Shown here piece after piece: positions 46,712 to 49,930 of a stretch of 64,000 nucleotides of DNA (positions are counted from its first letter, which is position 1; each line of letters starts with the position of its first letter). Location: NCBI RefSeq assembly GCF_054482525.1, contig NZ_CM137006.1. The stretch is one strand, 5' to 3'. A program made the translations under genes and the position numbers. The notes beneath the pieces are model-generated. The model saw only the letters and a list, made by a program, of their open reading frames with translations. It had not been told where the DNA came from and searched no databases.

Positions 46712-48820
46712 TCAGTACTCTCTCATATCCGGCGTATCCTGCTTTTCATCAGGGGTCTTCGGTGGGGATTTCGAGGCTGCACAGTTCCAGTTAATCAACA
46801 GTGAGTCACCATTAACCTGCTCCTTACCCTGCAAATGAATTTTTGTGCCGTTGAGAAAAATTTGTCCGTCCTTAGTCAGCACCAGCCTTGCCTTACCACA
46901 GCAGAGTTCCAGATGCTCACCGGCGGAGTAAATCGCGGTCTGCCCGGTATCATCCTTTTTCGTTTTACCAACGGTGAAGGTAACGTTATTTCCGACTTTG
47001 ACGTCATAACCCAGCCCGACCATCAACGATTTATGCAAACCGATCTACGAGGACTGCATCAGGGCCACCGAGGTGTTCATAATGCCACCTACCGTCGTCT
47101 GATACGCCACGCCCACAGTCAGCGCACGAACAAGTCCAATCGTTTCCACCTGAACAGAGCCCACTTTAATGATCTGGTTACTGCCCACCGTCTCTATCTG
47201 GTTAACGCCCACCGTCTGTATCTGATTGTTGGTAACCGCAATCATCTGATTGTTGCCAATGGTCTCAGCATGGTTGTTTATCACATCCGTGGTGCGGTTA
47301 TTCAGCACCTCGGTGTTCATGTTCTTCTGCGCGTGGATGTAGACCTGTTCTTTCCCTGTCGCATCGTCAAACTTCAGTTCATTAAACCCGCTGCCCTTAT
47401 AGGTTTTCGAACGAATGGTCATCTGCGTCTTTGTTCCCGGCAGGCTGCCGGGGGTGCGGTTTTCCTGGTGGTAGGTACGCCCCATAATAATCGGCTGGTC
47501 CGGATCGCCGTTGAGGAAGTCCACAATGACTTCCTGACCCACACGCGGTATCGCCAGGTTGCCAAAGCCGGTGCCTGCCCACGCCTGTGCCACACGGATC
47601 CAGCATGAACTGTCCTGGTTTGACGGGTTATAGCGGTCCCAGTTAAATTTCACCCGCACGCGGCCATGTTCATCACAGAAGATTTCTTCTCCTGCCGGTC
47701 CCGTCACGACGGCGCTCTGCGGGCCGTCCACCAGCGGTTTCAGCAACGGCTGTGGCCGCCATGTTCTGTCTGCCGGTATTACCGCAAAGTGGTTATTCAG
47801 CGTGGTACCTGAACCCCTGCGTCCCGGCACCGCCTGCGGCTGCTCGCCGTGCAGTTCACTTGCCACCACCTGCCATTCCCGGTTCAGGTTCGCCTGCGGA
47901 TGCCCCGTCAGCGCAATTCGCCGTCCCGGCCATATCTCCGGCGAACGGCTTGTTCCGCGCGCCACTTCTGCGTTGTTTCGCCAGCCATCCATCTGCCAGC
48001 AGGCAAAGTTCTGCCCGTGGGCACCCTTGAAACGTCCGGGGTAGTCATACACTTCATACTGTGTGCGCTGGTAATCCTGGTGCTGGCCTTCCTGATCAAA
48101 ACGCCCTGCCCAGCCGGGTCGTTTAAAGGTGTAGTCTTTGGTCACCACGGAAGATGGGCGGATTTGTGCGCTGTAGAGGAACTGGCTGATGCATAGGGTG
48201 CTCACCTCGGTACGGGTGTTCGGATTCCAGGGGATCTCAAAGGACTCCGGCAGATAACGCACGGTGTCGCACAGGACCAGGCTCTGGTCGGTACTTTTTT
48301 GCGCGTGCTCCTCATAAAAGAAGATGCCTTCCTCCGCCGCCATCCGGCACAGGAAATCGTAATCGGTTTCGCCGTACTGGACACAAAACTCACGGGAAGG
48401 ATGCGGCTCGCTGAACAGCGGACTCCACTCGGTCACCCCGTTTTCTTTCAGGATCGTCGCGAGTATGCTTTCGATGTCCTCATTCTGGAAGATACGGAAG
48501 TTCTGGCGCAGCCCTGTGCGCCACAGCGGTGGGCACACCTTCATGCTGTACAGCATCTGGTTTTTGTCGTTCTCCCCCAGTTCAAACCAGGTCACCACAC
48601 CTTTCACCCGGCGCTGTACGTCATCGCCCTGCCATACCGTCAGGTAGGCCATTTTGTCCAGCACCTGCGCAAATTCAAGGGAGAGAAACTGCTGGCTGAC
48701 CAGAGAGAGATCGAGGGAAAAGAGCGAAGAGAGTGACTGGTTCAGATGAAAGGAGACCACCGCAAACGCGTCCGGTGGCAGGCCGTCCACTTCCAGCGTG
48801 AAACGTAATCCGGTTGACAT
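46712..48820 (-). pseudogene. vgrG: vgrG (T6SS spike protein) interrupted by one in-frame stop at 47045-47047
   Basis: ORFs 47045..48856 and 46712..47038 are in the same frame, separated by a stop plus 2 codons; N-terminus MSTGLRFTLEVDGLPPDAF after GGAGG RBS; C-terminal piece has VgrG-tail-like sequence. Confidence 0.75.
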
Positions 48821-49930
48821 AGCAACCTCCGTGAAAATGAATAATAATCCGCACATATTGCATGTACAACATGTCGGGCGGATGAGATAAGCGAGTCGAC
48901 ATCTGGCGTTACCGGGGAATATCAGAAAAATGTCATGGTTATGTGATGATTTAGTCTGGGATTTTACTTCAGAGAAACGGGTGTCTGTTTAGTCAACAAA
49001 ATAATCACAAACGCAACGGATGGGTTCTCGACGTTATTCACGACAGGCTCGTACATTACAGCGAGTAATAAAAAACCTGATATGCAAAGTCAAACCAATA
49101 TTCATAATGTCTTTTTATTCACAACAATAAATAATTCAATAACAATCATTGAAATGAATGATGGTTTGTATAAGGAATGTACGCTACCGCCCAGCCCTGA
49201 TAACATGATCTGCACATTGCCATCTTAACGTCGTTAAACACTGGCTTAATAGTGGATATTTCAAATTAGGAATTTATTAAATTCACCTGATGAATATCAT
49301 AAGCAAATAGCATAGAAAATAATGACAACTCCCCCGAGGGGACCATTTCCAATGCACTGCACCACCACCTGGTGCCCGGATGATCTTGCTTCAGTGGTAA
49401 GAGTACCTGATTCATTGTTCCCAAAATGGTGTTTTCCCCTGCTCCTCCAATAATAATGTGCAGCTCTCACGTGATAATCTATTGATTAGGTTATATTAAG
49501 AATCAATATTTAAAATACATCCATTTTCTTGAGTAAATCAACGTGTTTATTTATCAATTGCTGTTTTAGCTCTGACTCATCAAGCTCTCCATATTTGCAC
49601 TACAGATAATCGCGAATAAATACAGAGAACGCCATTTATCCTTTTAGCATACCTGCAGGATATTTTTATTTGTATTAATATTAATTGCATCTCCAACTCC
49701 GAGCATATCCATCATTAAAATATTTTTAGATTATAGAATGCCTGTGATAACAACTGAAACATCTGCACAATGTGAATAGTTAGTTTCTTTTCAGAGGAAA
49801 TGAAATAGACAAGCTGAATGAAATGGAGAGTGATTAAATTGAATTAAAAAAACATAACATGATTCTAATTAATTACGCCCATCATTGTGGATAAAGTCAC
49901 TGAATAATAAATAATCTTCTGGTATCCCAC

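Follow-up and report, generated by a model that had tools for sequence, protein, structure and literature searches.

A published counterpart of this locus is in PCN033, a sister strain that carries the same gene at the same two loci with about 100% identity over 25 kb. Both of its vgrG copies are interrupted in the beta-helix by one shared lesion, and the resulting halves, 'VgrG2 (1587) plus 1588' and 'VgrG1 (0247) plus 0248', were handled as four VgrG proteins, with no mention of a frameshift (Zong et al. 2019, Virulence, PMC6363058). PCN033 is reported to have an active antibacterial T6SS that requires 'vgrG1' and is restored by plasmids with the 541-aa ORFs (PMC6363058). The PCN033 lesion, present in that assembly only, removes 1 nt at codon 538 (leaving 541 aa + 158 aa), whereas the copy described here has a TAG at codon 592. 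K-12 RhsE (yncH-rhsE'-ydcD-yncI'-ydcC) lies at the same site between the same flanking genes and is decayed as well, but there vgrG is wholly lost and a truncated rhsE pseudogene is left, whereas the window retains a complete rhs, and its vgrG carries a single lesion. VgrG truncations that lose the distal spike and keep gp27 and gp5 have been described for A. tumefaciens VgrG1 (Wu et al. 2019, EMBO Rep, PMC6945064) and A. baumannii VgrG (Lopez et al. 2020, mBio, PMC6960284). These differ in that they were either engineered or, in one case, a naturally occurring point mutant; they also come from other genera and have other C-terminal domains (DUF2345/TTR). As outcomes vary between these systems, the E. 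coli case is not settled by them.

The window (the whole stretch of 64,000 nucleotides analysed) is closest, among complete genomes, to SCU-102 (NZ_CP051753.1); across some 57 kb the two are separated by 5 SNPs and a single 12-nt indel. Comparison of the identical SCU-102 DNA with K-12 MG1655 identifies the site as the classical RhsE locus, ansP-yncG-yncH / ydcC-yddH-nhoA (Table 1); yncG and yncH are both intact in K-12. Identical public records label the vgrG there 'type VI secretion system tip protein VgrG', pseudo, with an 'internal stop'. In SCU-102 this is the PGAP pseudogene HHJ21_RS10010, which has the identical 2109-nt sequence at the same locus, and 'internal stop' is given in 29 other complete genomes also. 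The lesion is an ordinary nonsense allele already flagged in public annotation; the annotation of HHJ21_RS10010 is silent on the ancestral codon, on a second broken copy and on a conversion tract.

Table 1. Features at the RhsE locus, in window coordinates.
Feature	Position	Strand	Remarks
ydcC, ISAs1-family (H-repeat) transposase, closes Rhs element	40638..41774	-	ORF listing, SCU-102 annotation, K-12
114-aa ORF directly after rhs, candidate immunity gene by position	42120..42464	-	hypothetical protein WP_001279014.1 in SCU-102
Rhs core protein, intact, 1384 aa, Tox-WTIP C-terminal tip	42491..46645	-	annotated intact in SCU-102
Perfect repeat, putative gene-conversion tract	44712..48831	.	4,120 bp; 100% identical in SCU-102 to main-cluster hcp-vgrG-rhs segment
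vgrG (tssI), conceptual full-length	46712..48820	-	702 codons plus stop, RhsE locus; 2109 nt; identical gene annotated in SCU-102
Untranslated 3' remnant, codons 593-702 + original stop	46712..47044	-	conserved C-terminal spike tip (AGEHLELCCGKARLVLTKDGQIFLNG...)
Premature amber TAG, codon 592	47045..47047	-	mutated base = window 47047, C to T in gene sense
Coding part of truncated VgrG, residues 1-591	47048..48820	-	gp27-like hub, OB fold, most of gp5 beta-helix
yncG (GST) + yncH (DUF5445) remnants upstream of vgrG	49644..50420	-	frameshifted pseudogenes in identical records (SCU-102 RhsE segment L001, 6581-7070 and 7167-7357)

Two minus-strand ORFs in the ORF listing, 47045..48856 (603 aa) and 46712..47038 (108 aa), make up one vgrG. 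The original prediction, that they share one frame and are split by a stop codon and two sense codons, is borne out by direct reading of the minus strand (TCC TCG TAG ATC GGT TTG CAT, with TAG at 47047-47045) and by translation of the joined frame, which runs ...VALMQSS(stop)IGLHKSLMVG... and ends ...DTPDMREY(stop). The predicted joined length of about 700 aa holds too, with a corrected start: in identical public records this is the ATG at 48820 (MSTGLRF...), not 48856, which gives a gene of 702 codons and a truncated product of 591 aa. The 108-aa 'ORF' is an out-of-use 3' remnant only, the TTG at 47038, which follows the sense codons ATC and GGT, being merely where the mechanical ORF list placed a start. 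Re-initiation at this TTG, two codons past the stop, to give a separate C-terminal protein is treated as an artefact of the ORF listing. No Shine-Dalgarno-like sequence was seen by eye before the TTG or the next ATG, and the equivalent C-terminal ORF in PCN033 gave no phenotype (PMC6363058). A promoter and terminator scan around vgrG returned counts not above those of shuffled sequence.

The orthologue comparison proposed with the prediction points to the ancestral base. The intact gene of strain 19KM1776 (WP_001605069.1) differs from the window vgrG by a single base and has CAG (Gln592) at the affected codon; the change is therefore CAG to TAG. The TAG is the sole lesion in the window vgrG and is premature relative to this orthologue. 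The one-base difference at codon 592, together with the intact Rhs ORF, supports the predicted recent nonsense lesion beside an intact Rhs gene.

In Pfam searches, VgrG matches Phage_GPD (PF05954, residues 29-327, E = 2.9e-73), the gp5 OB-fold Phage_base_V (PF04717, 384-450, E = 7.8e-15) and the gp5 C-terminal beta-helix Gp5_trimer_C (PF22178, 467-576, E = 4.5e-26). Among solved structures it matches VgrG1 7q5p and 4mtk (E about 1e-95 to 1e-100); the homology covers residues 13-544 and resumes at the C-terminal tip, where residues 612-675 align to 549-611 of 7q5p and 543-601 of 4mtk. The E. coli protein differs from both in carrying about 70 extra beta-helix residues between the two homologous parts. 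The TAG sits within this extra stretch, ahead of the tip, and the tip-homologous residues fall 3' of it (codon 592 of 702), so that the reading frame to the tip is interrupted. The predicted product is thus without the last 111 residues of VgrG, including the conserved terminal spike strands.

The Rhs ORF begins 66 nt past the vgrG stop. Its product has DUF6531 and 13 RHS_repeat matches (Pfam), matches to RHS_core and Rhs_assc_core (TIGR03696, E = 3.2e-29) and a Tox-WTIP C-terminus (E = 2.9e-13). The 'PAAR' label first given to this protein is not confirmed. Pfam PAAR_motif matches weakly at residues 3-20 (E = 0.26), residues 2-29 match a spike-tip protein weakly (E = 0.19), and the stretch ahead of the PVNPLLG motif is just 47 residues long; this motif aligns with the start (first residue) of Tse5 chain 8cp6_B. 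The 114-aa ORF after rhs has no match in NCBIfam.

A single base separates the window from the intact allele, inside a 4-kb repeat where polishing may misassign reads, and a sequencing or assembly error, with a true C and an intact vgrG, was among the options originally raised. The allele census and independent assemblies rule this out, leaving it next to no probability. Of 5,426 complete E. coli genomes, 30 carry T at codon 592 and 2,602 carry C; the 30 are independent and differ in laboratory, host and continent of origin. An exact match to the 591-aa product occurs on 102 public contigs (NCBI, ENA, Logan); its carriers include several close relatives of the window from all three sources, among them a draft genome that matches the window at 100% for 12.6 kb. 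Assembly GCA_012247615.1 is 100% identical to the window. Judged from sequence, the TAG allele is genuine, inherited and rare, and is derived rather than ancestral. Segment 46291-50099 is nearly identical between lineages with flanks about 2% apart, and is without flanking markers that would separate import of the T into the window's lineage from its recurrence there.

By megablast, vgrG is found in two places only in SCU-102, and two loci are also given for PCN033 (PMC6363058). In the SCU-102 main cluster, vgrG matches the orphan copy at 100% identity, TAG included, and an alignment of the two SCU-102 segments (L001 and L004) has zero differences from 8170 to 12289 of L001. The main cluster lies outside the window, and the second broken copy is deduced from SCU-102. 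The predicted orphan T6SS module stands as far as the window is concerned, where no T6SS core genes were found, but the prediction missed the identical stop in the SCU-102 main-cluster vgrG. The remaining T6SS core genes of SCU-102 are all annotated intact.

Both vgrG copies are broken in five genomes, with the hcp-linked copy carrying an 'internal stop' in 5/5. The markers around T differ: G1008 is common to both E700025 copies, and T1614 is retained in the UID2309220033 main-cluster copy, with C1614 in SW4848 and OY754421. The genomes with T in both copies thus appear as the products of several conversion events with different tracts. In some assemblies the double state could in principle be a polishing artefact of the 4-kb perfect repeat; the main-cluster copy of UID2309220033, with its distinct T1614, speaks against it for at least one genome. 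In GPEC403-625, an intact main-cluster vgrG codes for the same VgrG protein. An additional 1-nt deletion at codon 495, leading to a stop at codon 501, is found in 27/30 T carriers, and the orphan rhs is frameshifted in those carriers; the window is without such further decay, and its rhs is intact. All four combinations of the two lesions are present (A/C, A/T, del/T, del/C), indicating repeated exchange in both directions.

The best explanation, with a probability of roughly 0.7, is an inherited nonsense allele of the orphan vgrG that spread to the main copy by conversion, with function likely reduced or lost. CAG (Gln592) changed to TAG in the orphan RhsE vgrG, the allele is passed on vertically, and translation should end after residue 591. 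As the orphan and main-cluster genes encode the same protein and share a repeat of about 4 kb, they would exchange sequence by gene conversion. The main copy is intact in most carriers, so the orphan would be redundant and its lesion tolerated. Most carriers have since gained a frameshift upstream of the stop and another in the orphan rhs. In the lineage of the window, and in no fewer than four further genomes, conversion would have placed the TAG in the main-cluster vgrG. Both spike genes would then be truncated, with the rest of the T6SS annotated intact. We infer that the truncated spike no longer carries its cognate Rhs normally, which would make this a young loss-of-function or reduced-function allele. 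In Agrobacterium, chromosomal C-terminal VgrG truncations abolish secretion (PMC6945064), and in A. baumannii every C-terminal VgrG truncation fails (PMC6960284).

It is unlikely, although a real possibility, that the truncated spike still works. The 591-aa product, with gp27, OB fold and beta-helix, would trimerise, nucleate the baseplate and Hcp tube and support firing, Rhs loading would perhaps be altered or absent, and the 'pseudogene' label would be functionally wrong. The PCN033 541-aa ORFs of the same protein are reported to complement a mutant without any vgrG ORF, and the 158-aa ORF is inert (PMC6363058); that complementation was plasmid-based, however, and the PCN033 deletion, being confined to a single assembly, may have arisen in assembly, and the native PCN033 protein would then be full length. 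Overexpressed C-truncated VgrG1 brings back Hcp secretion in Agrobacterium (PMC6945064), but rescue is by overexpression only and the chromosomal truncations fail. According to a citation in PMC6960284, enteroaggregative E. coli VgrG1 needs no more than its gp27 domain for T6SS activity. All three vgrG lesions (codons 495, 538 and 592) fall within the beta-helix, outside gp27 and the OB fold, and in five genomes the TAG has reached the expressed main-cluster gene via several different tracts. The intact state of all other SCU-102 T6SS genes despite two truncated vgrG copies fits a still-working spike and a very recent loss alike. Against a working spike, the conserved tip is lost, and the upstream frameshift in 27 of the 30 T carriers gives no sign of the 591-aa product being preserved; with only five of 2109 nt variable across 14 vgrG copies, a selection test would have no power.

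Read-through of the amber codon, by a suppressor tRNA or leaky termination, with useful amounts of full-length VgrG, was another option of the original prediction and is very improbable. Near-cognate read-through of UAG occurs naturally in E. coli at a low level, suppression of the supE type would restore the original Gln, and little protein may be needed, as each machine has one spike trimer. However, the stop is a rare derived allele that is not conserved among orthologues, and most carriers add a frameshift that is beyond rescue by any suppressor. No tRNA genes were found within the window. The proposed check for amber-suppressor alleles was run on the SCU-102 tRNA-Gln genes: the operon was located and read and is wild type, both glnV-type genes (glnV/glnX) having anticodon CTG and both glnU-type genes TTG, leaving supE-type suppression unsupported. 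A search of all complete genomes with a 75-nt glnV bearing a CTA anticodon, with K-12 laboratory strains as positive control, found the supE allele in 155 genomes, and 40/40 among the matches listed are K-12 laboratory derivatives.

An inhibitory or switching role is scarcely credible. Truncated VgrG would poison a mixed spike, or conversion between a silent broken copy and the expressed one would act as a heritable on/off switch for T6SS/Rhs delivery. A natural A. baumannii VgrG variant with a C-terminal change inhibits T6SS (PMC6960284), and the identical N-terminal parts of the two copies make mixed trimers plausible. For a switch, the presence of all lesion combinations with exchange both ways is suggestive, but neutral concerted evolution of a duplicated segment, in an element known as a 'rearrangement hot spot', predicts the same pattern, and the PCN033 orphan copy is reported as not expressed in the laboratory (PMC6363058). 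It is improbable, too, that the orphan vgrG is a niche-selected reservoir of a spike-truncating allele, pasted into and removable from the expressed main-cluster copy by conversion, rather than a case of simple decay. If it were, the outcome would be a heritable, reversible change of the T6SS, which would be switched off or would fire with no Rhs cargo, and selection would favour this in certain gut or extra-intestinal niches.

As a single gene, this publicly flagged nonsense allele carries little weight. The 'four VgrG proteins' of PCN033 are two frameshifted genes, and together the strains hold a natural allele set of one VgrG (intact, stop at 592, frameshift at 538, frameshift at 495) that could test how much of the beta-helix and tip is required for an E. 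coli spike to fire and to load Rhs. More broadly, a null or truncating allele from a redundant, apparently silent orphan vgrG can reach the T6SS-serving copy via gene conversion. A strain may thereby lose or change its spike while all other T6SS genes look intact, a loss that surveys of core-gene presence would miss.

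The vgrG gene lies on an E. coli chromosome in the gene order curA-mcbR-pqqU-yncE-ansP-yncG'-yncH'-vgrG-rhs-(114-aa ORF)-ydcC(ISAs1)-yddH-nhoA-...-narZ-...-ddp-dosP. This is the classical RhsE site, which in K-12 MG1655 holds only a truncated rhsE pseudogene and no vgrG, whereas the window carries vgrG with an intact rhs. No T6SS core genes are found within the window, so the term orphan module is correct. Read directly, the minus strand at the ORF junction is ...TCC TCG TAG ATC GGT TTG CAT..., with two sense codons between TAG and TTG, and the region, translated in one frame, encodes a VgrG-like protein interrupted by one internal stop (...VALMQSS*IGLHKSLMVG...DTPDMREY*). 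The original prediction, that the two ORFs are one vgrG split by a single in-frame TAG, is thus accurate, with the start codon as the sole correction. The true start is the ATG at 48820 (MSTGLRF...), as in identical public records, rather than that at 48856; the 12 residues that the latter would add (MCGLLFIFTEVA) do not occur in annotated homologues, the main-cluster copy differs there, and the protein collection contains no such 603-aa form. This makes the gene 702 codons long and leaves a truncated product of 591 residues.

A fully intact vgrG (WP_001605069.1) is found at the same locus in strain 19KM1776. It differs from the window gene only at gene position 1774, where a C in 19KM1776 corresponds to a T in the window and codon 592 has gone from CAG (Gln) to TAG. 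The TAG is the only lesion in the window vgrG, and the adjoining 1384-aa Rhs ORF is undamaged. The main interpretation, a recent nonsense lesion beside an intact Rhs toxin, therefore holds, and we read the TAG allele as real and young.

Coordinates of features in and around vgrG (window positions unless another locus is named)
Feature	Position	Strand	Remark
ORF, N-terminal part of vgrG	47045..48856	minus	from ORF list
ORF, C-terminal part of vgrG	46712..47038	minus	from ORF list; TTG start is a mechanical ORF-finder choice
Internal TAG	47047-47045	minus	codon 592
Added 12-residue segment	48821-48856	minus	start at 48856 from ORF list
Codon-495 deletion	47338		gene position 1483, 1 nt
PCN033 codon-538 deletion	47207		gene position 1614, 1 nt; loci L008 (PCN033) and NZ_CP006632.1 ~269.7 kb
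SCU-102 identity tract	48831..44712		4,120 bp; SCU-102 locus L004, 7244-11363
Segment nearly identical across carriers	46291-50099		vgrG + 1.3 kb upstream
14-nt insertion in rhs of carriers from the other lineage	46011		near rhs 5' end; frameshifts their orphan Rhs; window lacks it
SNP cluster in rhs	44645-45038		17 SNPs
Rhs C-terminal tip	42491-42880	minus	Tox-WTIP
114-aa ORF	42120-42464	minus	after rhs; immunity-gene position
yncG + yncH	49644-50420	minus	just upstream of vgrG
12-nt indel vs SCU-102	8306-8317		in-frame, in LysR-family regulator gene (ORF 7573..8484)
SCU-102 main-cluster second rhs	L009 36438-40386		frameshift + internal stop
SCU-102 rhs beside ybfA	L011 36793 onward		internal stop

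To follow the allele, 5,426 complete E. coli genomes were searched with 55-nt queries centred on the site, the megablast seed being forced to include it. T occurs in 30 genomes (35 places) and C in 2,602, so TAG is rare and derived. The sources of the 30 carriers span several continents and comprise humans, dogs, chickens, a marsupial, lake water and seawater; in the carriers inspected, PGAP labels vgrG 'internal stop'. The exact 591-aa product occurs on 102 public contigs (the exact intact protein on 211), and at least five further assemblies of the window's own background (at least 99.75% identity) carry T. A sequencing error, offered earlier as an alternative, is ruled out by this range of carriers, contigs and same-background assemblies.

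Between the closest strain, SCU-102 (NZ_CP051753.1), and the window there are 5 SNPs and one 12-nt indel in ~57 kb; PCN033 and 19KM1776 are also close, and the draft genome GCA_012247615.1 is 100% identical across 12.6 kb around vgrG. yncG (glutathione S-transferase) and yncH (DUF5445) are frameshifted pseudogenes in all relatives inspected, unlike in K-12, where both are intact. T carriers of the other lineage diverge from the window by ~1.7-2% in the flanks, with vgrG and the sequence just upstream nearly identical across all carriers. There are no markers near the site, and T may have entered the window's lineage through recombination or may have arisen there anew.

As to read-through, the other alternative, no tRNA genes are found in the window, and the four tRNA-Gln anticodons of the SCU-102 operon (CTG, CTG, TTG, TTG) are all wild type, leaving supE-type suppression unsupported. 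A glnV query with the supE anticodon matched 155 genomes; among the 40 matches listed all are K-12 laboratory derivatives, indicating that the search works. Two further points against a maintained read-through signal are the rarity of the allele and the later frameshifts.

These frameshifts include a 1-nt deletion at codon 495 (CTACATCC to CTACTCC), outside any homopolymer, found in 28 complete genomes: 27 of the 30 T carriers and 19KM1831, which has it in two copies and retains CAG. In deletion carriers the frame closes at codon 501, well ahead of the TAG, and in those inspected the orphan rhs, which carries a 14-nt insertion, has a frameshift annotation as well. Thus, the 591-aa product is not preserved where the TAG allele is oldest. 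Two other rhs genes of SCU-102 are also disrupted (see table), and that strain shows a general decay of its Rhs elements. The codon-495 deletion is seen with and without TAG, and the four possible haplotypes all occur, indicating exchange between copies.

Five genomes of the census carry the T allele twice. In SCU-102 the second T copy belongs to the main T6SS cluster, where it lies beside tRNA-Asp and directly after hcp, and it is 100% identical to the RhsE-locus vgrG over all 2109 nt, TAG included. The perfect identity tract runs from 11 nt before the start codon through vgrG and the 66-nt spacer into the first ~1.9 kb of rhs, with abrupt divergence at window 44711 and 48832. Each of the five double carriers has an 'internal stop' annotation on its hcp-linked vgrG. 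Both copies are intact in 19KM1776 and encode the same protein, and in GPEC403-625 the orphan vgrG is broken and the main one intact, the latter again encoding that protein. Orphan and main vgrG thus evolve in concert. Only five of 2109 positions vary among 14 tabulated copies. E700025 has a private G1008 with T1774 in both copies, the main-cluster copy of UID2309220033 retains the main-locus marker T1614 with T1774, and those of SW4848 and OY754421 have C1614 with T1774 and lack the codon-495 deletion. Accounting for these patterns takes several conversion tracts that differ in where they end. Separately, the SNP cluster in rhs sets the window apart, together with SCU-102 and PCN033, from 19KM1776 and the other lineage; it resembles a patch converted from a different rhs copy.

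By Pfam, the gp27-like hub (residues 29-327), OB fold (384-450) and gp5 trimerisation beta-helix (467-576) precede the stop, and residues 13-544 align to the solved VgrG1 spikes 7q5p and 4mtk. Residues 612-675 (FTVGKTKKDDTGQTAIYSAGEHLELCCGKARLVLTKDGQIFLNG...) align to the C-terminal tips of the same structures; the stop at 592 therefore takes away conserved terminal strands of the spike. The C-terminal end of the spike is the attachment point of tip proteins and cognate effectors. The downstream Rhs has DUF6531, many RHS repeats, an Rhs-associated core and a Tox-WTIP tip (Pfam and family profile matches; E = 2.9e-13 for the tip), with a hydrophobic segment at the end. The 114-aa ORF, presumed to be the immunity gene, matches no family. 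The PAAR label on this Rhs is unconfirmed: the PAAR_motif match is sub-threshold (Pfam, E = 0.26, residues 3-20), and the protein has only 47 residues ahead of the PVNPLLG motif, the point at which the solved Tse5 chain starts. A canonical PAAR domain would not fit in that space, though the segment could be a partial PAAR-like one.

Published work on C-truncated VgrG points both ways: findings in PCN033 and enteroaggregative E. coli suggest that such a protein may work, and doubt over the PCN033 deletion, together with results in Agrobacterium and A. baumannii, suggests that it may not. In the sister strain PCN033 (Zong et al. 2019, PMC6363058), 'VgrG1' (541 aa) and '0248' (158 aa) inside the cluster, and 'VgrG2' (541 aa) and '1588' (158 aa) outside it, were described; in RefSeq these ORFs are halves of this vgrG, cut by a 1-nt deletion at codon 538. 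The 'four VgrG proteins' (0247/0248, 1587/1588) are thus two vgrG copies with the same deletion each, a frameshift not mentioned in PMC6363058. The deletion is in no other genome or contig searched and, being confined to one assembly, may be an assembly error. Deletion of vgrG1-0248 abolished antibacterial activity, which was regained with either plasmid-borne 541-aa ORF but not with a 158-aa ORF, and the orphan vgrG is reported to be silent under laboratory conditions (PMC6363058). For enteroaggregative E. coli VgrG1, PMC6960284 cites a report that the gp27 domain suffices for T6SS activity. In Agrobacterium, C-truncated VgrG1 rescued Hcp secretion only when overexpressed, and the same truncations on the chromosome abolished secretion (PMC6945064). 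In A. baumannii none of the C-terminal truncations worked, and one naturally occurring variant with a C-terminal point change is even inhibitory to the T6SS (PMC6960284).

All other T6SS core genes of SCU-102 are annotated as intact, which is as consistent with a very recent loss as with a spike that can still be used. The TAG allele most likely cripples normal Rhs loading, and may or may not abolish T6SS firing. The lesion itself is of a common type and already carries an annotation in public records; what is added, of modest interest, is that it has spread in concert to the vgrG of the main cluster and that it can be linked to the PCN033 study.
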